IMG/VR virus record: IMGVR_UViG_3300027712_000017
DNA from: a virus
Lineage: Duplodnaviria; Heunggongvirae; Uroviricota; Caudoviricetes
Reading direction: 5' to 3' (one strand)
DNA length: 64,000 nucleotides
Shown: positions 43,870 to 58,343 of the stretch, piece by piece
How the letters are laid out: the number at the start of each line of letters is the position of its first letter
Numbering within the stretch: position 1 is the stretch's first letter
Notes under the pieces: model-generated
What the model was told of the DNA's origin: nothing
What the model saw: only the letters and a program-made list of their open reading frames with translations
The model's database searches: none
Position numbers and translations under genes: made by a program

Positions 43870-43898
43870 CCATTGAGAACCCACCAAAATTTTCGTGG

Positions 43899-43927
43899 TT
43901 GACATCTTTTTTGGAATATTCGATAAA
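43899..43927 (+). promoter_or_regulatory. cassette promoter copy 1 (TTGACATCTTTTTTGGAATATTC-GATAAA)
   Basis: member of repeated promoter-leader family. Confidence 0.55.
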
Positions 43928-43957
43928 CAAAGCATGGAAACGAAGGGAACGAAGAAA

Positions 43958-44206
43958 ATGGCAAAGTTTGATACCGCGACCGTGACCCGCTGGGCGAAAA
44001 TGGCAGAAATGTTTTTGCTGCGACTGGAGGGCGTCACCGGCACCACGAAGGACATCCATCTCGGTGTCGAGGCATGGACCATTGCTCACTTGTCGGGCAT
44101 CACCAGTGAGGCCTATGACGACCGGTCGGTCACGGACGCGCATATTAAAACCGCCCTCGAGAAAATCTTCCCCAATGCGAATTTCAAGGATCGCTACTCC
44201 TACTAG
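43958..44206 (+). CDS. hypothetical protein (82 aa), cassette gene
   Basis: GC-rich ORF; ATG after leader AACGAAGAAA. Confidence 0.5.
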   Translation: MAKFDTATVTRWAKMAEMFLLRLEGVTGTTKDIHLGVEAWTIAHLSGITSEAYDDRSVTDAHIKTALEKIFPNANFKDRYSY

Positions 44207-44210
44207 GGGT

Positions 44211-44239
44211 TGACATCTTTTCTATTTAATTCGATAACA
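44211..44239 (+). promoter_or_regulatory. cassette promoter copy 2
   Basis: TTGACATCTTTTCTATTTAATTCGATAAC. Confidence 0.55.
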
Positions 44240-44264
44240 CAATAGAAGAAACAGGGAGAACGCC

Positions 44265-44438
44265 ATGGATTACCAATCTGCTGAAGCAATTGCTATTCGT
44301 CTCGAAGGCATCCGCCGCCGTGCTGATCTGTTCGGTCAGGACCGTGACAGCGTGCTGAGCGAGATCGAGTTCCTCGCTCAGGACTTCCGCAAGTGGGCTG
44401 CGAAGATCGAGGAAGAGATGGTCGCACAAACCGCTTGA
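44265..44438 (+). CDS. hypothetical protein (57 aa), cassette gene; stop TGA inside next -35
   Basis: not in ORF track (<60 aa); SD GGGAGAACGCC-ATG. Confidence 0.45.
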   Translation: MDYQSAEAIAIRLEGIRRRADLFGQDRDSVLSEIEFLAQDFRKWAAKIEEEMVAQTA

Positions 44439-44463
44439 CATCTTTTCTGGAATATTCGATAAC
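44435..44463 (+). promoter_or_regulatory. cassette promoter copy 3
   Basis: TTGACATCTTTTCTGGAATATTCGATAAC. Confidence 0.55.
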
Positions 44464-44491
44464 ACAATAGTAGAAACGAAAAGGACACAAG

Positions 44492-44740
44492 ATGAACGGC
44501 TGGAAGAATCACGCGACCTGGAACATGAACCTGTGGTATGGCGATGTCTTCGCCGATCTCGCCGAGAATGGCATGGAGATCACCGGCGACTCGCTGCTTG
44601 AGTATGTCTATGACACCGAAGGGCTAAACGCTATGCCTGTGGGGTTCACCCGCGACGCCGCCATGCTGACCTTCAACTCGGTCGACTGGGACGAGATCGC
44701 ATCTCACTATGTCTTGCCCGAAGACGAAGAAGACGCTTGA
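44492..44740 (+). CDS. hypothetical acidic protein (82 aa), cassette gene
   Basis: SD AAAAGGACACAAG-ATG. Confidence 0.5.
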   Translation: MNGWKNHATWNMNLWYGDVFADLAENGMEITGDSLLEYVYDTEGLNAMPVGFTRDAAMLTFNSVDWDEIASHYVLPEDEEDA

Positions 44741-44746
44741 CATCTT

Positions 44747-44775
44747 TTCTCGAATATTCGATAACACAATAGAAA
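44747..44775 (+). promoter_or_regulatory. cassette promoter copy 4
   Basis: TTGACATCTTTTCTCGAATATTCGATAAC. Confidence 0.55.
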
Positions 44776-44795
44776 AAACGCGAAGGAGAAACGCG

Positions 44796-45125
44796 ATGGG
44801 TTTTGAAGATCTGATGTGGAAAGTGAGCGAAGCGGTCGAGGCCTTCTTGAGTGAAGCACGGGAGGTGTCCGCCTCGGAGCTTGGCCTCGACCAGCGTGCT
44901 GCATGGGGTAAAGTTTGCGTCACTCCCGAGTGCCTGGCAGTGCTTGCTGATAGCGAAGGCAGTCTCCGCTACTATGGCGGTTTCGAGTATGTTAGCAAGG
45001 AATACCGGGTTGGCATGGGCGAGTGGGTTTTCTACCTCGCCGAGGACGACCGTGTCCGCGAGCATCTTGCCCATGTCTTCCCTGAACTGCGCGATGGCGA
45101 GTGGGACGAAGAAGATGCCGCTTGA
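44796..45125 (+). CDS. hypothetical protein (109 aa), cassette gene
   Basis: SD GAAGGAGAAACGCG-ATG. Confidence 0.5.
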   Translation: MGFEDLMWKVSEAVEAFLSEAREVSASELGLDQRAAWGKVCVTPECLAVLADSEGSLRYYGGFEYVSKEYRVGMGEWVFYLAEDDRVREHLAHVFPELRDGEWDEEDAA

Positions 45126-45150
45126 CATCTTTTCTAGAATATTCGATAAC
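45122..45150 (+). promoter_or_regulatory. cassette promoter copy 5
   Basis: TTGACATCTTTTCTAGAATATTCGATAAC. Confidence 0.55.
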
Positions 45151-45180
45151 ACAATAGAAGAAACAAAAAGGAAGACACAG

Positions 45181-45375
45181 ATGTCCATGACTAAGCAAGA
45201 GCTGGTGACCGCCATCAGCAGCAACTTCTTCGGCGAGCGTGACACCCTGCAGGAGGCCTTCGACTATGCCTTCGCTGTCGCAAAAGCGACTGGGGATAAT
45301 GCCGCAGTGATCACCGCACTGATGGTCGTTGCCAACACCATCGCCAAGGAGATCAAAACCCTCGCCGATGCGTGA
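45181..45375 (+). CDS. hypothetical protein (64 aa), cassette gene
   Basis: SD AAAGGAAGACACAG-ATG. Confidence 0.5.
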   Translation: MSMTKQELVTAISSNFFGERDTLQEAFDYAFAVAKATGDNAAVITALMVVANTIAKEIKTLADA

Positions 45376-45379
45376 GGGG

Positions 45380-45408
45380 TTGACATCTTTTCGCTTTAAT
45401 TCGATAAC
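45380..45408 (+). promoter_or_regulatory. cassette promoter copy 6
   Basis: TTGACATCTTTTCGCTTTAATTCGATAAC. Confidence 0.55.
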
Positions 45409-45434
45409 ACAATAGAAGAAGAGGGAGATCGAAG

Positions 45435-45647
45435 ATAGCAGTCAAGTTTGTCGAAGGGTATAAAGACCCAGCATGGCCCGAAGTCAAAGAGGCGTTCTAT
45501 CGCAATTTCAACCCCGACGACTGGGATAGCATCACCATCGCCAAGACCCGTGCGACCGTGAAGCGTCACGCTGAGCAGCGTCTGGTGTGCGACTACGCTA
45601 TAAAGAAAGTAGGCGACGACTGGTGGGCTGTCAATTATCACTCTTGA
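45435..45647 (+). pseudogene. cassette ORF without an ATG start (ATA at the position where paralogous leader at 49148 has ATG); possible pseudogene or non-canonical start
   Basis: 70-codon open frame from TAA in -10 box to TGA in next -35; contains no Met codon. Confidence 0.35.
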
Positions 45648-45672
45648 CATCTTTTCTGGAATATTCGATAAC
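45644..45672 (+). promoter_or_regulatory. cassette promoter copy 7
   Basis: TTGACATCTTTTCTGGAATATTCGATAAC. Confidence 0.55.
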
Positions 45673-45701
45673 ACAATAGAAGAAACGGGAAGGAACCCAA
45701 C

Positions 45702-45914
45702 ATGACTGATCTGCACGCTAAAACCGCCGAATCTGTGACCGATGCCTTCTGCCAACTGCTGATCGCCAAGCACGGGCACGCCTATGCTGCGGGCTATATC
45801 TCCTCGCTGCTGCTGTCGCTTGTGTCATATACTTTGACCGGCGAACAGCAAGCAGAATTCGCCGCTGACATCTCGAAGCGCCTGTCCGATGAAGTTCGCA
45901 AGATGTCCGCCTAG
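45702..45914 (+). CDS. hypothetical protein (70 aa), cassette gene
   Basis: SD GGGAAGGAACCCAAC-ATG. Confidence 0.5.
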   Translation: MTDLHAKTAESVTDAFCQLLIAKHGHAYAAGYISSLLLSLVSYTLTGEQQAEFAADISKRLSDEVRKMSA

Positions 45915-45919
45915 GGTGG

Positions 45920-45948
45920 TTGACATCTTTTCTAGAATATTCGATAAC
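45920..45948 (+). promoter_or_regulatory. cassette promoter copy 8
   Basis: TTGACATCTTTTCTAGAATATTCGATAAC. Confidence 0.55.
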
Positions 45949-45969
45949 ACAAGAATGGAAACAAAGGAA

Positions 45970-46140
45970 ATGACCATGACACTCCACAAGATGCTTGCTA
46001 ACCTGATCGCTAATGCTGAAGCCGCTGCTGTCGCGGATGACCACGCTCGCCGTGAGGCCTGCGTTGCTGTTGCAGGCAAAGTGATGGATATGATCCACGC
46101 TGGCAATGGCAACCTGAAACTGGAGGTTGCCCATGTCTAA
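45970..46140 (+). CDS. hypothetical protein (56 aa), cassette gene
   Basis: SD AAAGGAA-ATGACC-ATG; stop overlaps next start (ATGTCTAA). Confidence 0.45.
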   Translation: MTMTLHKMLANLIANAEAAAVADDHARREACVAVAGKVMDMIHAGNGNLKLEVAHV

Positions 46141-46438
46141 TTATAGCGAAGGCGCGAATTGGAGTAATGAAGCGACCAAAATTGTAAATATCTGGTTTGA
46201 CGATCTTTTTGAGATGTGTGCTTTATACCCGATTGACGAAGAAACCGGCGAGATGGACGAGATAGATGCTGGATATTTCAAAGCTCTTGTCTGTGACTCC
46301 ATGGACTTTGATACCATAAACAATGGGTTTCTGATGGCTGTTGCTTATAAGGTTCTTGACCAGGTCAACTGGGAAGAGCTTGCAGCCTTTTGGGCTGGGG
46401 TTCAGGCCGCTGAACTTGTGCAGCAAAAAGCCGCTTGA
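46133..46438 (+). CDS. hypothetical acidic protein (101 aa), translationally coupled
   Basis: ATG within ATGTCTAA overlap; no separate promoter. Confidence 0.5.
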   Translation: MSNYSEGANWSNEATKIVNIWFDDLFEMCALYPIDEETGEMDEIDAGYFKALVCDSMDFDTINNGFLMAVAYKVLDQVNWEELAAFWAGVQAAELVQQKAA

Positions 46439-46463
46439 CATCTTTTCGCTTTAATTCGATAAC
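46435..46463 (+). promoter_or_regulatory. cassette promoter copy 9
   Basis: TTGACATCTTTTCGCTTTAATTCGATAAC. Confidence 0.55.
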
Positions 46464-46493
46464 ACAATAGAAGAAACAAAAAGGAAGACAAGA

Positions 46494-46880
46494 ATGGGTA
46501 CTCGCAGCATGATCGGCATGGTCGAAGCAGACAACTCGGTGTCGGCGATCTATTGCCATTGGGATGGTTATCTGTCGCATAACGGCGACCTCCTGGACAA
46601 GCACTATGACTCGGATGTCAAGGTCGCTGAATTGCTCGCCATGGGCGATCTGTCAACCCTCGGCGCGACCCTGCAAGAGCCCGACACTCGCGTGCTGAGC
46701 GGCGGCGCTGCTGCTGTGCGCTTCGAATCCATCGCCGCTTACCGCGAAGCCCTGGGGGAAAGCGGCGATCAGTTTCGCTACCTCTGGGATTCTGCAGCAT
46801 GGTTCTATATCGGCGGCGGTCGCACGGTCTGGGACGATGTCCGTGAGGGTCTGAAAGACGTCCGTGGCGTGACTGCCTAA
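46494..46880 (+). CDS. hypothetical protein (128 aa), cassette gene
   Basis: SD AAAGGAAGACAAGA-ATG. Confidence 0.55.
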   Translation: MGTRSMIGMVEADNSVSAIYCHWDGYLSHNGDLLDKHYDSDVKVAELLAMGDLSTLGATLQEPDTRVLSGGAAAVRFESIAAYREALGESGDQFRYLWDSAAWFYIGGGRTVWDDVREGLKDVRGVTA

Positions 46881-46886
46881 CGTCTT

Positions 46887-46940
46887 GAGAACGCAGCACA
46901 ATTCCGACCCAGGTGCTGCGTTCTCGATAAATTGTTTTTC
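46887..46940 (+). terminator. rho-independent terminator (13-bp stem GAGAACGCAGCAC/GTGCTGCGTTCTC, then TTGTTTTTC)
   Basis: perfect 13-bp inverted repeat read from sequence. Confidence 0.75.
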
Positions 46941-47049
46941 AGCATTGTCTATAGTTTTCAATAGTTTACACCAAAAACACTTTCAGTCGCGTCTTGTTCT
47001 TGTGCTATCATGCCTCGAACAAGGCGCTGCTGCGCGTCCACAAGGGTGG

Positions 47050-47078
47050 TTGACATCTTTTCCATTTAATTCGATAAC
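47050..47078 (+). promoter_or_regulatory. cassette promoter copy 10
   Basis: TTGACATCTTTTCCATTTAATTCGATAAC. Confidence 0.55.
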
Positions 47079-47107
47079 ACAATAGAAGAAACGGGAAGGA
47101 ACCCAAG

Positions 47108-47893
47108 ATGATCTATGACCTGTCGAAGTTGTCGGACGAAGTGCGCGCCCAGATCGAGGGCACCGCGAAGTATCGCAAACTGTTCAGCGAGAAGCCCAAG
47201 CGCCTGCTTGCTATTGATGGCAATGCCAAAACTGTCAAAGGCCGCGCTGCTGGGTTCATGACCGCTATCTTGTATCTTACACCTGCTTCGGCCTCGGGCG
47301 AGAACGTCTGTCCGATGGCAGCAATTGCTGCTTGCGATGAACCGTGCTTGAACACCGCTGGTCGTGGTGCGATGGGTTCGGTGCAATTGGCGCGTCTTCG
47401 TAAGACGCTGTTCTATATTCAATACCGCGAAGAATTCATGGCGCAGATCAAGAAAGAGATCGCTGCTGCCGTGCTCAAGATCAAGAAGAAGGGCTTCACG
47501 CCTTTGGTCCGCTTGAACGGCACGTCTGATCTGCGCTGGGAGAATTTCGGCATTCCCCAGGCATTCCCGGATGTCCAGTTTTACGACTACACCAAGATCC
47601 TGAACCGCAAGAACATCCCTGCCAATTATGACTTGACGTTCTCCTACTCGGGCGTTGCTGCTTTCAAGCCCTTTGCTATGAAGGCAATTGCTGCTGGTAT
47701 GCGCTTGGCGGTCGTGTTCCGTTCTCGCGCCGTGGTCGAAGGCATGCTTGCTGCTCAGGAGTCGTTCTTGGGGATGCCCGTGGTAGATGGTGACAATACA
47801 GACATCCGTCATATTGACCCGCAAGGCGCTGCTGTCGCGCTTTATGCCAAGGGCAAGGCAAAAACCGACCGCAGCGGGTTCGTGGTGGGTTGA
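47108..47893 (+). CDS. conserved hypothetical protein with Cys motif (CP...C...C), possibly GP88-family-like
   Basis: 261 aa; LAIDGNAKTVKG...LTPASASGENVCPMAAIAACDEPCLNTAGRG; family assignment from memory only. Confidence 0.55.
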   Translation: MIYDLSKLSDEVRAQIEGTAKYRKLFSEKPKRLLAIDGNAKTVKGRAAGFMTAILYLTPASASGENVCPMAAIAACDEPCLNTAGRGAMGSVQLARLRKTLFYIQYREEFMAQIKKEIAAAVLKIKKKGFTPLVRLNGTSDLRWENFGIPQAFPDVQFYDYTKILNRKNIPANYDLTFSYSGVAAFKPFAMKAIAAGMRLAVVFRSRAVVEGMLAAQESFLGMPVVDGDNTDIRHIDPQGAAVALYAKGKAKTDRSGFVVG

Positions 47894-47918
47894 CATCTTT
47901 TCCGTTTAATTCGATAAC
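47890..47918 (+). promoter_or_regulatory. cassette promoter copy 11
   Basis: TTGACATCTTTTCCGTTTAATTCGATAAC. Confidence 0.55.
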
Positions 47919-47947
47919 ACAATAGAAGAAACGCGAAGGGAAACAAG

Positions 47948-48127
47948 ATGATCGAATATGAATTTAGCGCCTACGGCAAGACCATGTGGATTTGGGTCGA
48001 TACGGTCGGTGAGGCGATGCACGAAGCAAACCTCGTGCTGATCTGGCCCGAGGAAGGCAAGCCCGGCGCCTGGTTCGAAACCACTGAGACGAAGTTCCGC
48101 TGGGTCGAAGGGAACTTCTCCGACTAA
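47948..48127 (+). CDS. hypothetical protein (59 aa), cassette gene
   Basis: not in track (<60 aa); SD GAAGGGAAACAAG-ATG. Confidence 0.45.
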   Translation: MIEYEFSAYGKTMWIWVDTVGEAMHEANLVLIWPEEGKPGAWFETTETKFRWVEGNFSD

Positions 48128-48134
48128 TCTGTGG

Positions 48135-48163
48135 TTGACATCTTTTCTAGAATATTCGATAAC
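48135..48163 (+). promoter_or_regulatory. cassette promoter copy 12
   Basis: TTGACATCTTTTCTAGAATATTCGATAAC. Confidence 0.55.
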
Positions 48164-48192
48164 ACAATAGTAGAAACAAAAAGGAAGACAAG

Positions 48193-49071
48193 ATGCCTCG
48201 TGGTGTTCCCGCTAACGGTTTTCGCATGACTAAGAACGCAGTTGTCCGCACTGGCGGCGCTGCCATCCTGGACAAGATCGTCCCCGTTGCTGCCGTGCAG
48301 CACGAAACTGACGCTGAGATTGACGCTCGTCTGCGTGACCGCTTCGAGATCATGGATACCCTGACCCAGGCAGCCCTGTTCGGTGATGCCCGCTCGGTAA
48401 TCATCTCGGGTCCTGCAGGTCTCGGCAAATCTTTTAACGTCGAGAAAGAATTGACCAACTGGGATCCTGACGCAATTAACCACACTATCGTCAAGGGCTT
48501 TTTGCGTACTACTGGTCTTTATAAGCTCTTGTTCCAATACCGTGAGCGTGGTCAGGTCATTGTTTTTGACGATGCTGACGCGATCTTTTATGACGATAAC
48601 TCGCTTAATTTGCTCAAGGCAGTATGTGATACTACCGATGTCCGCAAAGTTTCTTGGTTGGCAGAGACTAATATGGTTGACGAAGAGTCTGCCGTTAAAA
48701 TCCCTCGCCAATTCGAGTTCAATGGTACCATCGTTTTTATCACTAACCTCGACTTTGACTCGTTAATCGAGAAAGGTCATAAACTCGCTCCGCATCTTCA
48801 GGCGCTTGTTTCTCGCTCGCATTATATCGACTTGGCGATGAAAACCAAGCGCGACTATCTTGTGCGTATTAAGCAGGTAGTTGATGCGGGTATGTTAAAA
48901 GATCAAGGTCTCAATGCAGATCAAGAAAAGGCGGTCGTTGACTATATTACGACTAACCAGAACAAGTTGCGCGAATTGTCGCTCCGTATGGCTGTTAAAA
49001 TCGGCAACCTGGTTAAGATGAAAGCAGACTGGAAGCGTTTGGCAAATGTGACCTGCTGCAAGAATCAGTAA
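48193..49071 (+). CDS. AAA-family P-loop ATPase
   Basis: Walker A GPAGLGKS, Walker B VIVFDDAD, sensor-1 TIVFITN. Confidence 0.7.
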   Translation: MPRGVPANGFRMTKNAVVRTGGAAILDKIVPVAAVQHETDAEIDARLRDRFEIMDTLTQAALFGDARSVIISGPAGLGKSFNVEKELTNWDPDAINHTIVKGFLRTTGLYKLLFQYRERGQVIVFDDADAIFYDDNSLNLLKAVCDTTDVRKVSWLAETNMVDEESAVKIPRQFEFNGTIVFITNLDFDSLIEKGHKLAPHLQALVSRSHYIDLAMKTKRDYLVRIKQVVDAGMLKDQGLNADQEKAVVDYITTNQNKLRELSLRMAVKIGNLVKMKADWKRLANVTCCKNQ

Positions 49072-49078
49072 CGCAGGG

Positions 49079-49094
49079 GGCAGCAATGCCCCTT
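49079..49094 (+). other. hairpin GGGGCA-gcaa-TGCCCC immediately upstream of cassette promoter
   Basis: 6-bp GC stem, GNRA-like loop. Confidence 0.4.
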
Positions 49095-49121
49095 GACATC
49101 TTTTCCGGAATATTCGATAAC
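49093..49121 (+). promoter_or_regulatory. cassette promoter copy 13
   Basis: TTGACATCTTTTCCGGAATATTCGATAAC. Confidence 0.55.
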
Positions 49122-49147
49122 ATAATAGAAGAAGAGGGAGATCGAAG

Positions 49148-49318
49148 ATGTCTTATGTCTATGCTGTCACTATTAACGACCATGCTGTCCGTGTCTTCAC
49201 GCAGCGCGCAGACGCCGAGACGTTCATTGCTACTTGTGAAGACACGGACGACCGGACCTGCTGGAGCTATGATATTGAGAAGATCGAACTGGATGGCGAT
49301 CCCAGGGGGACGATTTAG
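49148..49318 (+). CDS. hypothetical protein (56 aa), cassette gene
   Basis: leader GAAGAGGGAGATCGAAG-ATG identical to leader of startless ORF at 45435. Confidence 0.45.
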   Translation: MSYVYAVTINDHAVRVFTQRADAETFIATCEDTDDRTCWSYDIEKIELDGDPRGTI

Positions 49319-49321
49319 GGC

Positions 49322-49350
49322 TTGACATCTTTTCCGTTTAATTCGATAAC
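49322..49350 (+). promoter_or_regulatory. cassette promoter copy 14
   Basis: TTGACATCTTTTCCGTTTAATTCGATAAC. Confidence 0.55.
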
Positions 49351-49380
49351 ACAATAGAAGAAACGCGAAGGAGAGACGCG

Positions 49381-49602
49381 ATGAAATACCAGGACCTGAC
49401 GCTCGACCAAATCCGCCATGCCATTCCGTTTATCGTTGCCAATGCGAAGGCAGCAGCACGCGCTGACGCCCTTGATCTAGCTGCTATGCTGCAGGATCGG
49501 GCTGAGTCAATGTGGGACGAATTGGTGCGGCGCATCCGCGCTGAGGACCCTCACACCACCGAGGCAGACATCCGTTATTTCGAAGGGATCCAACTATGCT
49601 AA
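49381..49602 (+). CDS. hypothetical protein (73 aa), last GC-rich cassette gene before AT-rich sub-island
   Basis: SD GAAGGAGAGACGCG-ATG. Confidence 0.5.
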   Translation: MKYQDLTLDQIRHAIPFIVANAKAAARADALDLAAMLQDRAESMWDELVRRIRAEDPHTTEADIRYFEGIQLC

Positions 49603-49823: not shown

Positions 49824-49825
49824 AA

Positions 49826-52300: not shown

Positions 52301-52313
52301 ACGAATTTTGTTG

Positions 52314-52342
52314 TTGACATATTTTCGATTTAATTCGATAAC
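52314..52342 (+). promoter_or_regulatory. cassette promoter variant TTGACATATTTTCGATTTAATTCGATAAC
   Basis: family member. Confidence 0.55.
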
Positions 52343-52375
52343 GTATATTCGATAAAACGCGAAAAAGGATACGCG

Positions 52376-52636
52376 ATGAAATATGACATGAATGCGGACA
52401 CAGCGACGATTTTGATGCGCGGTTTGATTTACGCGATGGAAGATGAAGAAGCAACAGAATATGCGAAAGCAGAATTTCAAATCGAATGGTATCTGATCGG
52501 TGAGGCATTCGATTTGTTGGACGAAGATCAAATCGAAGAAATGGATTCTGTTATTGATGATATGCAACAAATCAAAGCAGAAATCGAATTTGAATTGGGG
52601 TATCAAAGATCGTCGATCACGATAAAAGAGGGTTGA
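52376..52636 (+). CDS. hypothetical acidic protein (86 aa)
   Basis: SD AAAAAGGATACGCG-ATG. Confidence 0.5.
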   Translation: MKYDMNADTATILMRGLIYAMEDEEATEYAKAEFQIEWYLIGEAFDLLDEDQIEEMDSVIDDMQQIKAEIEFELGYQRSSITIKEG

Positions 52637-52661
52637 CAACATTTTTGCAATAATGCATAAA
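52633..52661 (+). promoter_or_regulatory. weaker promoter variant TTGACAACATTTTTGCAATAATGCATAAA
   Basis: TTGACA + 17 + CATAAA. Confidence 0.35.
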
Positions 52662-52697
52662 TGTAAAATGACGAAAACGCGAATGAGGAGACATCGC

Positions 52698-52874
52698 ATG
52701 ACGTTCGAAATTATCAAAAAAGAAGTCAACGCAATTCAGAAGGATTGTTTTGATTTGACGATAATCAATCATGACACAAATGAAATTGTCGTGTTTGATT
52801 GCGTTAAAATCTGGGACGAAGATCAAGAATCATTAGAAGATATGTTTTATTATGACGAATCGTTAGACGCATAA
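52698..52874 (+). CDS. hypothetical acidic protein (58 aa)
   Basis: SD GAGGAGACATCGC-ATG. Confidence 0.45.
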   Translation: MTFEIIKKEVNAIQKDCFDLTIINHDTNEIVVFDCVKIWDEDQESLEDMFYYDESLDA

Positions 52875-52987: not shown

Positions 52988-53016
52988 TTGACATCTTTTC
53001 CCGAATATTCGATAAG
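52988..53016 (+). promoter_or_regulatory. cassette promoter variant TTGACATCTTTTCCCGAATATTCGATAAG
   Basis: family member. Confidence 0.55.
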
Positions 53017-53051
53017 TGATCATGAAGAAACGCGATGAAGGAGATCACGCG

Positions 53052-53264
53052 ATGCAAGTCACGATCCGGTTCAAAGACTATGTCTCTATGAACGCCATGG
53101 CTGTTGTGGGCAGCATTCTGACCAACGAGGAGCTAGCTACCATGCACGGGCTGCGCGGTGGCTTCTGGTATACGACCGATGTCTCGCCGATGGTCGTGCT
53201 CGCTGCCTTCGAATCGGAGGGAATCGAGTATCAGGACTTCGAGTCGATCTCCTTCGAACCGTGA
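53052..53264 (+). CDS. hypothetical protein (70 aa)
   Basis: SD GAAGGAGATCACGCG-ATG; leader with GTGATC...GATCAC inverted repeat. Confidence 0.5.
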   Translation: MQVTIRFKDYVSMNAMAVVGSILTNEELATMHGLRGGFWYTTDVSPMVVLAAFESEGIEYQDFESISFEP

Positions 53265-53272
53265 GATCCTGG

Positions 53273-53301
53273 TTGACATATTTTCGATTTAATTCGATAA
53301 A
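53273..53301 (+). promoter_or_regulatory. cassette promoter variant TTGACATATTTTCGATTTAATTCGATAAA
   Basis: family member. Confidence 0.55.
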
Positions 53302-53313
53302 TGATCATGAAGT

Positions 53314-53333
53314 AGGGCGGAAGGGTTCCGCCT
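53314..53333 (+). other. conserved 5'-UTR hairpin GGGCGGAAGGGTTCCGCCTC (copy 1 of 2)
   Basis: identical apart from 1 nt to 57644..57663. Confidence 0.55.
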
Positions 53334-53357
53334 CAACGCGATGCAGGAGACCACGCG

Positions 53358-53525
53358 ATGCTGAAAGAGATGTCCAAGATGACCGCCAAGCAGATGGAGC
53401 TGGTCAAGTCCCTCACCCTCGCCGCTTACGCTGACGGCAAGATGAAGGCGTCCGAGAAAGACGCGATCTTCGCAACCATGAAGCAGGTGCTGATCGCTCG
53501 CATCCAGGCGAAAAAAGCCGCTTGA
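53358..53525 (+). CDS. hypothetical protein (55 aa)
   Basis: SD GCAGGAGACCACGCG-ATG; stop TGA in next -35. Confidence 0.45.
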   Translation: MLKEMSKMTAKQMELVKSLTLAAYADGKMKASEKDAIFATMKQVLIARIQAKKAA

Positions 53526-53550
53526 CATATTTTCGATTTAATTCGATAAC
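53522..53550 (+). promoter_or_regulatory. cassette promoter variant TTGACATATTTTCGATTTAATTCGATAAC
   Basis: family member. Confidence 0.55.
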
Positions 53551-53578
53551 ATAATAGTAGAAAAAGGGAGATGACAAG

Positions 53579-53710
53579 ATGATCACTGCTGAGATGATGA
53601 CTGGCTGGATGAACGAGGCTGTGGTCTCGCTGTTCGCCGCTGTGGATGGTATGACGGAAGACGACTACGTCATGACTCGCCTGGTTTCTTTCTCTGTTAA
53701 CGAGGTCTAA
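53579..53710 (+). CDS. hypothetical small protein (43 aa)
   Basis: SD AAAGGGAG; Met-rich N-terminus. Confidence 0.35.
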   Translation: MITAEMMTGWMNEAVVSLFAAVDGMTEDDYVMTRLVSFSVNEV

Positions 53711-53711
53711 G

Positions 53712-53879
53712 ATGGCTAAACGGTTCGTTCTCACTTCGTCCGCTCGGCTGGAAGCGCTGTCCTTCGAGACTGTCGCCGACGCTGAGGCCTTCTTGGCATC
53801 GCGGAAGATCTCGCAAGAGAACATCTGCCTCGCCGACAAGATCAAGGACGAGGTCATATTCATCCGCAACTATTATTGA
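53712..53879 (+). CDS. hypothetical protein (55 aa)
   Basis: ATG 1 nt after upstream TAA. Confidence 0.4.
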   Translation: MAKRFVLTSSARLEALSFETVADAEAFLASRKISQENICLADKIKDEVIFIRNYY

Positions 53880-53889
53880 GGAGACCCCT

Positions 53890-54000
53890 ATGAAATACCG
53901 CATCCGTGACTTCCTAGAAGATCTTGCCTCTGTGGTCATGCTGTTCGCTATGATCCCCCTATTCCCCTACGCCATCGCAATTGTAAAGGCTCTGATATGA
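53890..54000 (+). CDS. small hydrophobic peptide (36 aa)
   Basis: SD GAGGAGACCCCT-ATG. Confidence 0.3.
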   Translation: MKYRIRDFLEDLASVVMLFAMIPLFPYAIAIVKALI

Positions 54001-54242
54001 CCCCCTTCCTGAAAACCATCACTACCCATACCGTCCAAGAAGCCATTAACGAGCATGGTCCTATGCTCTGTCTGATGTCTGTGGTCCCGCAATTCCGCCT
54101 CGATGGCAAGGTTACCTCTATTGACTTGGTGATCGGTGCTGACTACACTAAACGCTGCGCTTCTGCTTTCAGTAAGAGGGGCGTGCTAGAACTCGCGGCG
54201 CTCCTGGCTGAGATCGGCGCTGCGATGGATGAACCCCAGTAA
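53997..54242 (+). CDS. hypothetical protein (81 aa)
   Basis: ATGA overlap. Confidence 0.45.
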   Translation: MTPFLKTITTHTVQEAINEHGPMLCLMSVVPQFRLDGKVTSIDLVIGADYTKRCASAFSKRGVLELAALLAEIGAAMDEPQ

Positions 54243-54269
54243 CCCTCCTATGCCCCCTGCGTCCTACTT

Positions 54270-54318
54270 GACCCGCGTAGCGCGCCTTCTCCTGGGCAGG
54301 CTGCGTGGGTCTTTTTTT
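54270..54318 (+). terminator. rho-independent terminator (GACCCGCGTAGC...GCTGCGTGGGTC + T7)
   Basis: imperfect 12-bp stem followed by TTTTTTT. Confidence 0.65.
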
Positions 54319-54341
54319 CGGACAGGAGGGCAAAATCCCTC

Positions 54342-54370
54342 TTGACAACATTTCGATTTAATTCGATAAA
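54342..54370 (+). promoter_or_regulatory. cassette promoter variant TTGACAACATTTCGATTTAATTCGATAAA
   Basis: family member. Confidence 0.5.
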
Positions 54371-54405
54371 TGATCATGAAGAAACGCGATGAAGGAGATC
54401 ACGCG

Positions 54406-54585
54406 ATGGCTAGCACTGTGGTGAGACTCAAGACGAAGATCGAGGTGGGCTCGGTCGTGGCGACGGCGTTCAAGCGCTCGCGCGCTGAGGTCCTCGGGTT
54501 CGTGGACGAAAAAACCATGACCGTCCGCTGGGAGGCATCGGGCGAAGTCGCCGATGTTCTTCGCGTCGCTTTTATTCTGGCTTAA
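54406..54585 (+). CDS. hypothetical protein (59 aa)
   Basis: same leader as 53052 gene (GATCATGAAGAAACGCGATGAAGGAGATCACGCG-ATG). Confidence 0.45.
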   Translation: MASTVVRLKTKIEVGSVVATAFKRSRAEVLGFVDEKTMTVRWEASGEVADVLRVAFILA

Positions 54586-54595
54586 GGAGACCGTT

Positions 54596-54760
54596 ATGGA
54601 AAAGATCGCCGCCCTTTTGAGTGATGACCGGTTTGAATCCAAGGACTGGAAACACGCCGACGCCGCAGGCCGTATTGAATGGCTGATCGCCATGCTTGAG
54701 CAAAAAACCAAAGAAGTAAATATGTGGGTTGATTTGATCAACGCCATCAAGGATAACTGA
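54596..54760 (+). CDS. hypothetical protein (54 aa)
   Basis: SD AAGGAGACCGTT-ATG. Confidence 0.4.
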   Translation: MEKIAALLSDDRFESKDWKHADAAGRIEWLIAMLEQKTKEVNMWVDLINAIKDN

Positions 54761-54761
54761 G

Positions 54762-54965
54762 ATGACCGGATGGGTTATGAAGACAGTGTTCGTGACAACG
54801 ACCCCCCTCGAGCATGGGAACTGGTCGGCTGTCGAATTTGAAACCGCTGAAGAGGCTTGGGCTTGGTGGGACGCCGTTGCGACCAGGTCAGTGCACCCCC
54901 GTCAGATGACCGTGGCTGATCCATCGGGGCGGGTTTGGGCTTCGCGGTTCGTGCCAGTAAAGTAG
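54762..54965 (+). CDS. hypothetical Trp-rich protein (67 aa)
   Basis: TGAGATG coupling. Confidence 0.45.
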   Translation: MTGWVMKTVFVTTTPLEHGNWSAVEFETAEEAWAWWDAVATRSVHPRQMTVADPSGRVWASRFVPVK

Positions 54966-54975
54966 GAGTGCAGGG

Positions 54976-55191
54976 ATGACTTATATCATACAGGACCTAG
55001 CAGACGCCATAGTCAATATGGATGAAAATGTGCTAGTTGACTCGCGGGATCTTTACTTGCTCCTGAACCGGGCTGTAGGGGCTATTGATAGCAGGGACCG
55101 CGAGATCAAAAGACTACAGATAGCAATTATGCGGGGCGGTGATTTACTCGCAGAAGAAATTAAAAGAATAGGGATAGATGACTTTGAGTGA
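54976..55191 (+). CDS. hypothetical protein (71 aa)
   Basis: ORF with ATG after AGGAGTGCAGGG. Confidence 0.45.
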   Translation: MTYIIQDLADAIVNMDENVLVDSRDLYLLLNRAVGAIDSRDREIKRLQIAIMRGGDLLAEEIKRIGIDDFE

Positions 55192-55201
55192 GGAGACCGC
55201 T

Positions 55202-55402
55202 ATGACCCCCCGTTACTATGCCCGTAGTGCTAGTGACCGCACCGACGACTGGCCTTGGTGGTTTGTCGCCGACAGTAAGCGCGGGGGTCTCAATGTCACT
55301 ATGGAAATCTGTAAACTTTTAAACCGTCCTCCGGTGCATGGGGCTACACTATGTGCCAGGGAGTATGCTGAACATCTAGCTGAGGAGGCTAACAAGCTAT
55401 GA
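55202..55402 (+). CDS. hypothetical protein (66 aa)
   Basis: SD GAGGAGACCGCT-ATG. Confidence 0.45.
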   Translation: MTPRYYARSASDRTDDWPWWFVADSKRGGLNVTMEICKLLNRPPVHGATLCAREYAEHLAEEANKL

Positions 55403-55599
55403 GTACCTCTTATGAATACTGGGACGAGCTCTGTGAGCGGGTCAAGAAGCTGCGGGACCAAGGCTACACCGTCCTACAGATCGAGGATGAGACCGGGATA
55501 GACTACGAGGATATTCTGTGGGCTATTCATCAAGAGGTCCTCCTACAAGAAATGAAAGAAGCATTGGAGAAACGGAATGAGACTTATATCGAAGAATGA
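55399..55599 (+). CDS. hypothetical acidic protein (66 aa)
   Basis: ATGA overlap. Confidence 0.45.
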   Translation: MSTSYEYWDELCERVKKLRDQGYTVLQIEDETGIDYEDILWAIHQEVLLQEMKEALEKRNETYIEE

Positions 55600-55777
55600 A
55601 AGCCTACCCCTGACGCTATGGGAGGACCTTGATGGCAAGACCGTAGAGGAGGTGCTGGCTATGCTGGAGGCCTATCCTGCGGGGGCTGTCATAGACGCCA
55701 GGACGAGATGGGCAAAGCCAGATCAGCTGTGGGGCGGTCCCGAAGAAGACTATTTTGTTATTACATGGGAGGATTGA
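55577..55777 (+). CDS. hypothetical protein (66 aa)
   Basis: SD GGAGAAACGGA-ATG; 23-nt overlap with upstream. Confidence 0.4.
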   Translation: MRLISKNESLPLTLWEDLDGKTVEEVLAMLEAYPAGAVIDARTRWAKPDQLWGGPEEDYFVITWED

Positions 55778-55780
55778 GTG

Positions 55781-55978
55781 ATGGACTTAGTAGATAGAAA
55801 AGCGGTGATAGAGGCTATCCGCCTTGGTATGACAGTGACCCAGATAGAGCGGGAGGTTATGGCGATCCCGCAAGTCACTTTAGATGAAGTGATGGCTGAA
55901 AGATTCCGTCAGCACAATGAAGATAGGGGTGATGTACCAGGACGGTTCGGCTACTGGAAGCGTAAATGGCAGGAATAG
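55781..55978 (+). CDS. hypothetical protein (65 aa)
   Basis: SD GGGAGGATTGAGTG-ATG. Confidence 0.45.
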   Translation: MDLVDRKAVIEAIRLGMTVTQIEREVMAIPQVTLDEVMAERFRQHNEDRGDVPGRFGYWKRKWQE

Positions 55979-56194
55979 ATGAAGACCATCATCCATGTTA
56001 ATCAGCACGTAGTAAAGCGCAACAGTAAGACCGGGGAGCGAGAACCCTGCCTTACAGTGAAGCAGGGGCCTCTTAATACCTACGTTCATGAAGTAGAGAT
56101 CGCCGGTCCCTCTAGAGTGGTGTATAGACCCGACAAGCCTCTTAGCTGTGGCGCTAAGGTCTGCCTCTTAGCTGTGGCGCTAAGGTCTGGATAG
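55979..56194 (+). CDS. hypothetical protein (71 aa); C-terminus altered by a 26-bp tandem duplication
   Basis: TAGATG coupling; duplication units at 56138..56163 and 56164..56189. Confidence 0.45.
   Translation: MKTIIHVNQHVVKRNSKTGEREPCLTVKQGPLNTYVHEVEIAGPSRVVYRPDKPLSCGAKVCLLAVALRSG
56138..56189 (+). repeat. 26-bp perfect tandem duplication CCTCTTAGCTGTGGCGCTAAGGTCTG x2
   Basis: read directly from sequence. Confidence 0.8.
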
Positions 56195-56257
56195 AAACCG
56201 AAAGTGAAGTAACTCTAATAGGACCGGTGAAAGTAATGGGAAGGGCTAATAATGCTC

Positions 56258-56286
56258 TTGACAACATTTCCAAATAATTCTATAAC
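56258..56286 (+). promoter_or_regulatory. cassette promoter variant TTGACAACATTTCCAAATAATTCTATAAC
   Basis: family member. Confidence 0.5.
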
Positions 56287-56313
56287 TAAAAAGTAATTTG
56301 AAAGGAAACGACA

Positions 56314-56565
56314 ATGTATAAATTTCTCTTAGTGACCGGTTACCAGCTTTGGATGGTCCAGAAGAAGAACGACTTCACCGATCATGGTGGTGGCGAGCTT
56401 TACCACAAAGGTGAGCTAGTGGGCTATATGGAGGAGACCGACCGTGACGAGGACCGTATCTGGTACGACCACTTTGTCCGGGAAGATTTCTATCCTCACG
56501 AGATGGTGCAGGCGGAGAAAGAACGCCTCGAGAAACTATATAAAGGATTGAAGAAAAATGAGTGA
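56314..56565 (+). CDS. hypothetical protein (83 aa)
   Basis: SD GAAAGGAAACGACA-ATG. Confidence 0.5.
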   Translation: MYKFLLVTGYQLWMVQKKNDFTDHGGGELYHKGELVGYMEETDRDEDRIWYDHFVREDFYPHEMVQAEKERLEKLYKGLKKNE

Positions 56566-56743
56566 AGTTAAACTTAAGCCTATCGAAACCGAAGACGACG
56601 ATGGCATCATTTACATCAGCTTTACCGAAGATCACACCGTTCGGGATATTATCCGCTACCTACTGTCAACAGGTGTGAATGCAGAGGAATTGATTTACCA
56701 TATCAACGATCCGCATTTGCTGGAGAAACCAAATGACATTTAA
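56558..56743 (+). CDS. hypothetical acidic protein (61 aa)
   Basis: overlapping start. Confidence 0.4.
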   Translation: MSEVKLKPIETEDDDGIIYISFTEDHTVRDIIRYLLSTGVNAEELIYHINDPHLLEKPNDI

Positions 56744-56897
56744 AAATAACATGGAAGAAATTCGTTCATACTTTATCGAGATTTTTATTCGCCTAAATGA
56801 TATTGAGCAAGAAATTGGAAAGCAACGTAAAGAACAACACACCGACCGACTTTATGGTGACGAGCGGTATACTGACCATGGAAGGATTGAAGAATGA
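56733..56897 (+). CDS. hypothetical small protein (54 aa)
   Basis: not in track; 11-nt overlap with upstream. Confidence 0.3.
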   Translation: MTFKNNMEEIRSYFIEIFIRLNDIEQEIGKQRKEQHTDRLYGDERYTDHGRIEE

Positions 56898-57250
56898 CTA
56901 TGCATATGATTAGGGGCGTCATGGCTCCCGGTTCGGGCAAAAAGAAGCCCAAAGTGAAGACTGCTTCGATCCTCGCTGCTGAGAAAGCACTACGGGACAC
57001 TCTAGCACGGGTCGGATATAAGGGACCCCTTACCACAAGTAAACGCGCTTACAAGCATGACCTCGGCGTGGTTCGTGATGCTACCCGCACTCACAGCATT
57101 CCCGGTAACGGCACCAAGAAGGATGCCAATGTCTATACGGGTGACGAGATCTGCGGTATCGCAACCATGCACAAGAGCAACGCCGTTCCTATTCGGCGGG
57201 ATAACAAACAAGCAGCAGTAGACGTAGCAAACATGAGGACAGGCGGATGA
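56894..57250 (+). CDS. hypothetical basic protein (118 aa)
   Basis: ATGA overlap. Confidence 0.45.
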   Translation: MTMHMIRGVMAPGSGKKKPKVKTASILAAEKALRDTLARVGYKGPLTTSKRAYKHDLGVVRDATRTHSIPGNGTKKDANVYTGDEICGIATMHKSNAVPIRRDNKQAAVDVANMRTGG

Positions 57251-57438
57251 CTAAAGGTGATGTAGAAGTATTGGATATTGAAGATCAAGAGGATGGTAGC
57301 TCTATTATCACCTTCGACTTGTCGCAAGAAGCAACTAAGAGCATGGCGCAGTATGGGTTGAAGTTCGTGCTTTTCTGTGCCGCTTATGACGTAACCATTG
57401 ACGAAGGCTTTAACCGTATCGCAGGGAGAACAAAATAA
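57247..57438 (+). CDS. hypothetical acidic protein (63 aa)
   Basis: ATGA overlap. Confidence 0.45.
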   Translation: MTKGDVEVLDIEDQEDGSSIITFDLSQEATKSMAQYGLKFVLFCAAYDVTIDEGFNRIAGRTK

Positions 57439-57596
57439 TGATGACAGTAGCAATGCTCATTGAGCGTCTTAAGTCGTATCCGCAAGACGCTAAGATTATC
57501 ATTGATGCTCACAACTTCAACGTGGCGCATGATATGAAGCAACTCTACTGGTGTGAAGGTCGAGATGACAAAGATGAAGGTGTCTACTTCGAATAG
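57438..57596 (+). CDS. hypothetical small protein (52 aa)
   Basis: TAATG overlap; not in track. Confidence 0.35.
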   Translation: MMTVAMLIERLKSYPQDAKIIIDAHNFNVAHDMKQLYWCEGRDDKDEGVYFE

Positions 57597-57599
57597 CGG

Positions 57600-57628
57600 T
57601 TGACATCTTTTTTCATTAATTCTATAAA
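57600..57628 (+). promoter_or_regulatory. cassette promoter variant TTGACATCTTTTTTCATTAATTCTATAAA
   Basis: family member. Confidence 0.5.
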
Positions 57629-57643
57629 CAAAGAGTAATGAAA

Positions 57644-57663
57644 GGGCGGAGGGGTTCCGCCTC
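57644..57663 (+). other. conserved 5'-UTR hairpin GGGCGGAGGGGTTCCGCCTC (copy 2 of 2)
   Basis: matches 53314..53333. Confidence 0.55.
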
Positions 57664-57676
57664 GAAAGGAAACGAC

Positions 57677-57940
57677 ATGGCTGCGAATAACAACGGCAAA
57701 TCTGAGTTCAAAACTGAAAAACTGACTCGTGAAGATGTGATGGCTCGTTATGACGCACTTCCCAAGGAATATCGGGATGTGCTGAAAGATACAGTCATGA
57801 ACATAATCTGTTCTGATCCTAAAACTATCAAGCGCACTTTTCCCACGGCTCGTCACATGAAGTCGTGGGTTCGTCAAAAGGACCTTTTAGGTACTCGTGA
57901 TACCTATGGACGTCAACATCCGGCGGTATCTTACAAATAA
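57677..57940 (+). CDS. hypothetical protein (87 aa)
   Basis: SD AAAGGAAACGAC-ATG after UTR hairpin. Confidence 0.5.
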   Translation: MAANNNGKSEFKTEKLTREDVMARYDALPKEYRDVLKDTVMNIICSDPKTIKRTFPTARHMKSWVRQKDLLGTRDTYGRQHPAVSYK

Positions 57941-57949
57941 AGGTGTAAA

Positions 57950-58303
57950 ATGAAGCTAGATTTCCCCCTCGTAATCAACGAAGAACCACTTTCCGACGAT
58001 TTCTTACACTACCCAGGCAAGATGGCGAAGGTTGCTTACGAGGTTGCTCACTGGCAATGGCTCAGATGTCGCCTTTCCGAAGCGCAAAACTGGAAATGTT
58101 GCTGGTGTGGTGTAAAAACGACCGATCTCCGCAAGGTTCGGCACGCTTCTACTGTCGAGCATGTCCTACCAAAGTCACTGGGCGGCTCGAATGAGTGGGA
58201 AAATCTTGCTATGTCTTGTGAAAAGTGCAATAACGCCCGTGGAAACATGACGGCGGATGAGTTTATGGAAAAATTAACCGGCTCGTCCACGCCTTCAGCG
58301 TGA
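57950..58303 (+). CDS. HNH endonuclease
   Basis: CCWCG...HASTVEHVLPKSLGGSNEWENLAMSCEKCNNARGN (zinc-finger HNH motif). Confidence 0.8.
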   Translation: MKLDFPLVINEEPLSDDFLHYPGKMAKVAYEVAHWQWLRCRLSEAQNWKCCWCGVKTTDLRKVRHASTVEHVLPKSLGGSNEWENLAMSCEKCNNARGNMTADEFMEKLTGSSTPSA

Positions 58304-58343
58304 GTATGTAGTCCCAAATAAATAATCTCTTTAATGGAGGTAC

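Follow-up and report, generated by a model that had tools for sequence, protein, structure and literature searches.

A GC-rich block of small genes behind promoter-like cassettes in an uncultured T4-like phage: probably a native accessory region with a codon regime of its own

Introduction

The IMG/VR record IMGVR_UViG_3300027712_000017 holds DNA of a T4-like tailed phage, of which one stretch of 64,000 nucleotides was analysed here (the window, to which all positions refer unless another locus is named). Between 43.9 and 58.3 kb a block of mostly small genes is much richer in GC than the surrounding, AT-rich backbone. A first, sequence-only reading took this block for a sharply bounded island which was either acquired horizontally or evolves as a separate module of different compositional origin. 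The question raised by this locus is whether such a block is foreign DNA, or a native part of the phage genome in which another composition is maintained. We favour the second answer and give it a probability of roughly 60%: the block would be a native hyperplastic accessory region resembling the promoter-early stem-loop (PeSL) regions of T4-type phages, probably expressed immediately early and with a codon regime adapted to the tRNAs of the host.

The backbone belongs to a T4-like myophage, as indicated by gp43, UvsX, the gp41 helicase and NrdA (PHROGs). Its gp43 matches 2,674 T4-like records, the nearest ones in GenBank being marine cyanomyoviruses with about 52% identity, and at the DNA level neither the backbone nor the block finds a match among GenBank phages (megablast). 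Related loci, mostly from IMG/VR, are labelled with L-numbers in this paper, and 80 of them are covered by our orthologue surveys. The closest one, L003, is 95-97% identical over 33-43 kb, followed by L001, L002 and L004 with about 73% identity and by about 75 further IMG/VR loci, which encode a homologue of the ATPase of the block with 48-70% identity.

The composition step and its borders

Sliding GC values combined with likelihood change-points reveal a step at about 43.9-44.0 kb, where GC rises from 0.373 to 0.519 (likelihood-ratio test statistic 148). Further changes are found at 49.58 kb (0.510 to 0.372), 52.95 kb (0.393 to 0.532), 56.19 kb (0.523 to 0.433) and 58.3 kb (0.474 to 0.389), so that the GC steps claimed beforehand at 43.9 and 58.3 kb are real and the proposed limits 43890, 49596 and 58320 match. 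The block thereby consists of two GC-rich parts, island A and island B, and an interruption between them (Table 1). Island A (43890-49600) has a GC content of 0.512, or 0.540 once the cassettes described below are taken out, and lies far above backbone windows of 5.7 kb (0.391 ± 0.010, maximum 0.416; z=11.9). GC at third codon positions (GC3) ranges from about 0.2 to 0.48 per gene in the backbone and from 0.47 to 0.77 in island A, and the first and second codon positions (GC1, GC2) are raised in the island, too. Relative synonymous codon usage of island A is not correlated with that of the backbone (r=-0.01) but agrees with that of island B (r=0.73). The GC-normalised tetranucleotide signature deviates as well: r is 0.82 ± 0.04 for chunks of backbone matched in size, 0.70 for island A (z=-3.2) and 0.48 for island B (z=-9.4).

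Both strong terminators which had been proposed to bound the block, at 43803 and 58740, were detected. The sharpness of the bounds is a different matter: it holds for the left edge, with its terminator, the step and a first cassette beginning 73 nt 3' of the terminator, but not for the right edge, which is patchy and gradual. A GC-rich DUF932 gene, which is a conserved member of the module, sits beyond the right boundary that had been drawn.

The conserved core of the block across related phages

The anchor of the module is a P-loop ATPase, homologous to T4 NrdC.10 and by this to proteins in more than 1,300 T4-like records. It is present in 78 of the 80 loci, and in at least 35 relatives its gene lies within 10 kb of genes for a glycosyltransferase, an exonuclease, PhoH and a PD-(D/E)XK exonuclease. 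Its sequence identity falls in step with that of backbone genes (77 vs 78%, 62 vs 58-59% and 54-55 vs 55-57%). The GC3 of the ATPase gene exceeds that of the surrounding long open reading frames (ORFs) in 60 of 66 loci, by 0.20 on average and by 0.46 at most (p=5e-12); this excess is absent in marine relatives of about 30% GC. DUF932 likewise exceeds its local background (36 of 37 loci), and so does phrog_1987 (11 of 13). Because the ATPase is syntenic and diverges together with the backbone, and the offset is shared clade-wide, the GC3 offset must have been kept in place for long.

Searches for a source point in the same direction. No GC-rich donor was found by the DNA search of GenBank phages or by protein search, and the best match of the GP88-like protein is AT-rich: it comes from the Limnohabitans phage DC31 (37% GC), where the GP88 homologue has a GC3 of only 0.26. 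DC31 can thus be ruled out as donor or gene pool, and GP88 homologues adopt the composition of the genome in which they reside. When the island proteins were compared with Pfam and PHROG (for about a dozen small ORFs with just one of the two libraries, or with none), no integrase or transposase appeared among those tested, and an HNH endonuclease was the only candidate of this kind. Of the marks of a genomic island the block shows the atypical composition, and recent gain of its core, mobility genes and a donor are not found.

We conclude with high confidence that a recent horizontal acquisition of the conserved core is not supported. This core, with the NrdC.10-like ATPase and DUF932, is present, syntenic and equally offset throughout the clade; individual ORFans are variable. 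What remains of the idea of a separately evolving module of different compositional origin is a compositional and codon regime which the block has long kept for itself, and this part of the sequence-only reading stands.

Promoter cassettes and shuffling of single genes

The earlier structural description of the block had missed its main feature, an array of promoter-like cassettes. A cassette stands ahead of nearly every small gene of the block, and the genes served are mostly ORFans. On the plus strand a position weight matrix (PWM) detects about 21 cassettes of 58 nt (34-50 bits), while 20 shuffles gave 0 hits above 12 bits. Fourteen copies at 43.9-49.4 kb are near-identical (39-50 bits; repeat families D1-D5), 6-7 diverged copies follow at 52.3-57.6 kb, and several more are found on the minus strand of the hub between the islands. 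Strong copies occur only within 43.9-57.6 kb, but the type of promoter is common to the promoters of the backbone.

The cassettes have the layout (hairpin) TTGACATCTTTTC-N6-ATTCGATAAC-ACAATAGAAGAAAC-N-AAGGA-N-ATG. The part TTGACATCTTTTC-N6-ATTCGATAAC comprises a -35 box, a 17-nt spacer and a -10 box (TTGACA-N17-GATAAC), and ACAATAGAAGAAAC is a conserved 5' untranslated region (5'UTR) which is followed by an AAGGA/GGAG Shine-Dalgarno (SD) site and the start codon. About half of the cassettes have a GC hairpin which is formed by the last part of the upstream gene, reaches up to the -35 box and has TCTTTTC after it (for example at 49074-49095, at 53505-53524 and upstream of 54342), and sequences 5' of the cassettes fold more stably than controls (minimum free energy -12.3 vs -9.1 kcal/mol, p=0.001). 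From the hairpin at the -35 box together with the TCTTTTC tract we predict composite terminator-promoters. In six cases the TGA within TTGACA even serves as stop codon of the upstream gene (genes ending at 44438, 44740, 45125, 46438, 47893 and 53525). Judging from these sequence features, the cassettes probably act as sigma-70-type promoters and terminators.

A comparison of the window with L003 reveals three single-gene indels inside 3 kb, namely 274 nt additional in L003, and 258 nt (45137-45394) and about 300 nt (46125-46432) additional in the window. In all three the crossover lies inside the TTGACATCTTTTC core. In L004 the shared genes are differently ordered, and the unit 44208-44467 is 88.8% identical to L004, compared with 73% for the backbone. 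More distant relatives (L016, L022, L010) possess cassette families of their own with the same layout. L016 harbours nine cassette-driven ORFs with a GC3 of 0.72-0.87 and a four-fold A of 0.09, the NrdC.10 orthologue among them. Homologous recombination between cassettes would delete, insert and reorder single-gene units, and gene content would differ among near-identical phages because this recombination moves single genes.

Such an organization is known from T4-type phages, where PeSL cassettes occupy hyperplastic regions. Arbiol et al. (2010, PMC2839356) and Comeau et al. (2014, PMC4122927) described it for RB49/phi1, PST/T4 and nt-1/KVP40. The likeness includes the intergenic composite of a sigma-70-like promoter (TTGACA-N17), SD site and ATG with, in about half of the copies, a stem-loop or terminator, the dense clustering in a variable region of small ORFans, the single-gene indels and rearrangements among close relatives with junctions within the element, and the fact that the element sequence is specific to the lineage. 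It is a likeness in sequence; promoter, terminator and mini-circle activity are putative in our case. There are also differences. The cassettes studied here are more uniform, with 14 copies near-identical over about 45 nt including the 5'UTR, their -10 box reads GATAAC, the hairpin is found in about half of them and is sited in the end of the upstream ORF, six upstream stop codons coincide with the TGA of the -35 box, and the region has a GC content and codon regime unlike the rest of the genome. Taken together, we have high confidence that the block shows most of the sequence characteristics of a PeSL-type hyperplastic region.

The nrdC-mobD-rI region of T4 is similar insofar as nrdC.10 lies there among small accessory ORFs (nrdC.1-nrdC.11) in a non-essential region with HNH (mob) homing endonucleases. 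It differs by the absence of any rise in GC or GC3, as nrdC.10 has a GC3 of 0.28 and its neighbours have 0.16-0.38. The terms "GC content" and "G+C" do not appear in PMC2839356, nor does "GC content" in PMC9004378. In a limited literature search we found no report of a sharp, block-wise and clade-conserved second codon regime which is confined to a PeSL region.

Three further observations concern the cassettes and promoter motifs. First, a palindrome in the spacer overlaps the -10 element, TCGAATATTCGA in one copy and GAATATTC in many (e.g. 44750-44761), and is a possible operator to which a dimeric regulator might bind. Second, the gene behind the cassette at 45380 has ATA (45433-45438) where L003 (at about 13545) has an ATG start (GAAGATAGCAG vs GAAGATGGCAG), so this gene has probably been inactivated only recently in the phage of the window. 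Third, the T4 late-promoter motif TATAAATA is found in four plus-strand copies, all within the backbone, which is near chance by our own estimate and thus uninformative.

Codon regime and phage tRNAs

The switch in codon usage is not merely an exchange of AT for GC. At four-fold degenerate sites the backbone has A 0.35, T 0.42, G 0.11 and C 0.12, and island A has A 0.07, T 0.30, G 0.23 and C 0.39. The preference for GCC, CTG, GAC and CGC that had been noticed beforehand is confirmed by the codon fractions, which rise from the backbone to island A for CTG (0.09 to 0.34), CGC (0.16 to 0.59), GAC (0.31 to 0.59) and GCC (0.04 to 0.25). A-ending codons, on the other hand, nearly disappear: GTA (0.25 to 0.05), CTA (0.17 to 0.03), GGA (0.23 to 0.07), ACA (0.37 to 0.03), TTA (0.16 to 0.03) and AGA (0.27 to 0.01). 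The six codons most depleted in the island (AGA, ACA, TTA, GTA, CTA, GGA) are exactly those of the U34 tRNAs encoded by the phage (Table 1). These tRNA genes are tied to the island functionally, not physically. In the ATPase and DUF932 orthologues A/(A+T) is 0.11-0.29 at every GC level, compared with 0.25-0.41 in other long ORFs. Outside of the island, GC3 is 0.43 for genes behind strong promoter-like sites and 0.32 otherwise (p=4e-4).

These data would fit a block that is transcribed immediately upon infection from the cassette promoters. Its genes would need to be translated by the host tRNA pool alone, ahead of the build-up of phage tRNAs, and would keep a second codon regime which uses C- and T-ending codons and has nearly lost the A-ending ones, while the rest of the genome is rich in A-ending codons that its own U34 tRNAs could read. 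For translational selection as the cause of the codon offset our confidence is moderate.

Both elements of this explanation have precedents. Cowe and Sharp are said to have reported in 1991 that codon usage differs between early and late genes of T4. Early/late differences in codon usage occur in phages (Mioduser et al. 2017, PMC5683454), and low-GC T4-like cyanomyoviruses carry U34 tRNAs and infect hosts of higher GC (Limor-Waisberg et al. 2011, PMC3152331). The phage of the window resembles the cyanomyoviruses in its low-GC backbone with the core set Leu-UAA, Thr-UGU, Arg-UCU and Val-UAC, and the temporal systems in the different codon usage of presumed temporal classes. Different from both, it combines the two strategies within one genome in physically separate blocks, and the contrast is very large (r=-0.01 for relative synonymous codon usage, four-fold A 0.35 vs 0.07).

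Points against the favoured reading and alternative explanations

Several observations weigh against a native, early-expressed region under translational selection. Amino-acid usage is shifted in the island as well (Ala and Arg up; Lys, Asn and Ile down), and non-coding GC outside the promoter cores is 0.49 in the island compared with 0.35 in the backbone, a value obtained from short stretches dominated by SD sites and hairpins. Replication genes which are early or middle in T4 belong to the AT-rich regime here. T4 has no GC3 offset around nrdC.10, and in PA5oct the offset is weak despite a host of 66% GC, so neither of these external analogues shows a comparable block. The -10 box GATAAC departs from TATAAT at positions 1 and 6; it resembles the Caulobacter RpoD consensus GCtANAWC, which we treat as nothing but a lead. 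A stem-loop is found in only about half of the cassettes. Finally, the association of cassettes with GC-rich genes has exceptions: the AT-rich genes at 52376-52874 sit behind cassettes, and the AT-rich sub-island 49596-51211 follows the cassette at 49322 and has neither a cassette nor a promoter of its own. Owing to the raised non-coding GC, a regional or gene-pool component may exist.

PA5oct (L201) is noted here also for two lone GC-rich genes at 5098-6213 and 9100-10284 (GC 0.53 and 0.48) in a stretch of 32% GC. These are single-gene outliers, unlike the block of the window.

Among the alternatives, the one that survives best is a continuous influx from a GC-richer accessory pool by cassette exchange, via mini-circles or recombination during co-infection. 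The genes would stem from phages of the same host that match the host GC, and composition would reflect this source instead of selection in place. Such an influx could explain why most island B and several island A genes are ORFans without homologue even in the 73% relative, why the tetranucleotide signature of island B is the most deviant, why the unit 44208-44467 is closer to L004 than the backbone is, why GP88 is found patchily across unrelated phages, and why amino-acid usage and non-coding GC are shifted as well. However, it does not account for the ATPase and DUF932, which are inherited vertically and in synteny and carry the same offset clade-wide, nor for the A-versus-T asymmetry at four-fold sites, which holds at each GC level; the AT-rich GP88 homologue of DC31 and the failure of DNA and protein searches to find a GC-rich donor speak against it, too. 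As an account of the whole block we consider it unlikely. Individual ORFans, especially of island B and the AT-rich sub-island, may well have been imported.

A cause acting regionally on the DNA, either GC-biased gene conversion from cassette recombination or selection on GC itself, appears quite improbable to us, because A decreases 5-fold at four-fold sites and T only 1.4-fold, where a symmetric weak-to-strong bias predicts otherwise, and because AT-rich genes persist within the region. In its selective version, which is speculation, the DNA transcribed first would escape AT-binding nucleoid or xenogeneic-silencing proteins of the host. Recombination in the region is demonstrable by the indels relative to L003, and the rise of GC1, GC2 and non-coding GC would suit such a cause, the non-coding stretches being short and mostly SD sites and hairpins.

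Even less probable is a single recent acquisition of a GC-rich module from a phage or host of higher GC. The sharp left boundary at a terminator, the distinct GC, codon usage and tetranucleotide signature and the HNH endonuclease at one end would be expected from it, yet a module with the same offset is found at the same backbone position in dozens of relatives with 48-77% identity, its ATPase is a gene of the T4 superfamily, and the promoter type is present in the backbone. With no integrase or transposase among the island proteins tested and no donor in the DNA search of GenBank phages, and contradicted by the tests of ATPase orthologue GC3 and synteny, this explanation is very improbable. 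An assembly chimera, in which a GC-rich fragment of another organism was joined to the phage contig, is suggested by nothing more than the composition step itself and can be dismissed, since contigs from other samples (L003, as well as L001, L002 and L004) run across the junction of backbone and island, the cassette promoter type is found in the backbone too, and backbone composition and phage genes resume to the right of the block.

Genes and interruptions of the block

The native accessory region that we favour contains few genes of recognizable function. The majority of the island genes match no family in PHROG or Pfam and lack homologues among the 80 loci. The three genes picked out in the sequence-only reading, for a GP88-like protein, an ATPase and an HNH endonuclease, were recovered by our Pfam and PHROG scans (Table 1), and to these phrog_1987 can be added as a semi-conserved protein. 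The GP88-like gene occurs patchily across unrelated phages. For the ATPase, GP88-like and DUF932 proteins no relatives with solved structure were found. Homologues of island A genes with similar GC3 are present in L003 and L004, and for island B homologues in the related loci were found just for 54762-54965, 56894-57250 and 57247-57438 (L002/L004, L080, L005).

Table 1. Positions of the features in and around the GC-rich block and of the phage U34 tRNA genes.
Feature	Position	Strand	Characteristics
U34 tRNAs Val-UAC, Leu-UAG, Gly-UCC	112-186, 539-614, 1613-1687	+	read A-ending codons avoided by the island
U34 tRNAs Thr-UGU, Leu-UAA, Arg-UCU	1692-1767, 29668-29743, 36080-36155	+	read A-ending codons avoided by the island
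Intrinsic terminator, left edge (predicted)	43801-43826	bidirectional	11-bp stem with 6 GC pairs, T-run; scores on the minus strand too
Island A cassette array, 14 copies	43899-49379	+	TTGACA starts in the next two lines
Island A TTGACA starts	43899, 44210, 44435, 44737, 45122, 45380, 45644	+	PWM
Island A TTGACA starts, continued	45920, 46435, 47050, 47890, 48135, 49093, 49322	+	PWM
Island A, about 15 small GC-rich genes	43958-49602	+	mostly ORFans; GC3 0.47-0.77; four-fold A 0.07
phrog_1987 protein	46494-46880	+	semi-conserved; PHROG E=8e-23; homologues in 13 loci
GP88-like protein	47108-47893	+	PF17338 / phrog_1617
P-loop ATPase, T4 NrdC.10 homologue	48193-49071	+	phrog_1250; conserved anchor of the module
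AT-rich sub-island, six small genes	49596-51211	+	GC 0.367; backbone-like codon usage; two look membrane-spanning
Hub	51211-52330	-	GC skew -0.24; minus-strand promoter-like elements
Hub TTGACA sites, seven	about 52300, 52214, 52141, 52037, 51959, 51580, 51397	-	PWM; G-run before each
Hub ORF, 70 aa	51905-51693	-	SD site; GC3 0.69; four-fold A 0.03; island-type codon usage
Two AT-rich small genes	52376-52636, 52653-52874 (region 52314-52874)	+	GC3 0.41 and 0.39; promoter/cassette upstream
Island B, about 22 small genes	52988-58303	+	nearly all ORFans; GC 0.52, down to 0.46 past 56.2 kb
Island B diverged cassettes, TTGACA starts	52988, 53273, 53522, 54342, 56258, 57600	+	PWM
HNH endonuclease, right end of island B	57950-58303	+	PF14279 E=1e-11; PF01844 E=4e-10
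Intrinsic terminator near the right edge (predicted)	58738-58766	+	13-bp stem, then TTTTTTT
Promoter-like site and DUF932 gene	59662-60680 (gene 59727-60680)	+	GC3 0.58; homologues in 38 loci

The islands are separated by an AT-rich sub-island, correctly described beforehand, and the hub. Across the 80 related loci, no homologue was found for any gene of the sub-island. The hub had been regarded as non-coding; it does interrupt the block, but it is not purely non-coding, as it comprises minus-strand promoter-like elements and an ORF. From these promoters and the minus-strand ORF we predict a zone of divergent transcription. A hub segment of about 65 nt (52036-52112, minus strand), which has a minus-strand promoter-like site on either side, is conserved to about 88% in L004 (14372-14450), compared with about 73% for the backbones. 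It belongs to no Rfam family, has no more copies in IMG/VR and shows no unusual predicted fold, and on these grounds the idea of a small RNA is unsupported.

Two other observations concern repeats. In the 3' end of the gene 55979-56194 a perfect tandem duplication of 26 nt, GCCTCTTAGCTGTGGCGCTAAGGTCT (x2), is found at 56137-56188, each copy of which carries a CTTAGC/GCTAAG inverted repeat; 26 not being divisible by 3, the reading frame of the C-terminus is changed by it. In some relatives arrays of 12-nt tandem repeats (e.g. GAATCAAGTCTG) are found beside the ATPase gene (L022 at 10.8-13.1 kb; L046 at 4.0-5.1 and 11.2-13.1 kb; L048 at 3.9-5.4, 8.1 and 11.1 kb), which probably encode tetrapeptide-repeat proteins. 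Arrays of this kind are absent from the window.

tRNAs and tmRNA

ARAGORN identifies 11 tRNAs in the window and Rfam alone one more. A tRNA-like match at 927-999 (Rfam, 41 bits) lies in the 5' tRNA cluster and has no ARAGORN call. In L005, a relative of 195 kb, the tRNA cluster contains a tRNA with the anticodon CUA at 2567-2642, which ARAGORN labels tRNA-Pyl, an amber-reading suppressor; this may hint at read-through or recoding of TAG.

In addition the window encodes a two-piece (permuted) transfer-messenger RNA (tmRNA) of the alpha type at 63533-63927 with the tag ANENFAPVAYALAA; a promoter-like site, TTGACA-N17-TATACA at 63538, lies directly upstream of it. Two-piece tmRNAs are found in several relatives, too, along with large tRNA arrays; the similar two-piece tmRNAs of L046, L054 and L061 differ in their tags. 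Among the matches listed, the tag motif AN[D/E]NFAPVA occurs frequently in Alphaproteobacteria, for instance in Bradyrhizobium and Methylobacterium, and the closest tmRNA sequences, over short stretches only, come from low-GC metagenome-assembled genomes of uncultured Alphaproteobacteria. An assignment of the host loosely to the Alphaproteobacteria was nevertheless dropped, as an alpha-type tmRNA also occurs in a phage with a non-alphaproteobacterial host: the tmRNA of phage Melnitz does not match the class of its host (PMC9004378), and tmRNA type is for this reason not a reliable host marker.

Phages of the aquatic Melnitz/pelagimyophage group commonly have two-piece tmRNAs (PMC9004378). The members of this group share with our phage the aquatic T4-like character, tRNAs and a two-piece alpha-type tmRNA below an early-type promoter. 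The low-GC marine relatives L053 and L055-L059 may belong to this group. The phage of the window differs from it, as its nearest GenBank gp43 (52%) comes from cyanomyoviruses.

Implications for T4-like phages

The shuffling of single genes by PeSL-type elements, so far described for T4-like phages of enterobacteria, Yersinia and Vibrio, would by these results be extended to an uncultured aquatic clade. For the interpretation of phage genomes in general, the block is a warning not to infer horizontal transfer from a sharp compositional island unless orthologues have been tested.

The clade also offers a natural system of high contrast for the old question of why tRNA genes are found in large phages, and of whether genes expressed at different times are kept apart in codon usage. 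tRNA-dependent and tRNA-independent regimes would be located in separate blocks, and the contrast scales across relatives from none, in the marine ones of about 30% GC, to +0.46 GC3. A further step, which we offer tentatively and consider rather doubtful, is that the genome employs two codon "dialects" which work as a translational timer, with phage tRNA expression gating the transition from takeover to replication and assembly. The immediate-early genes would use just codons that are readable by G34-type tRNAs of the host, the A-ending codons would become efficiently readable only after the phage U34 tRNAs have been made, and new genes would come into the early dialect by way of the PeSL-like cassettes. 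If true, such a timer would be conserved across a widespread uncultured clade of aquatic T4-like phages.

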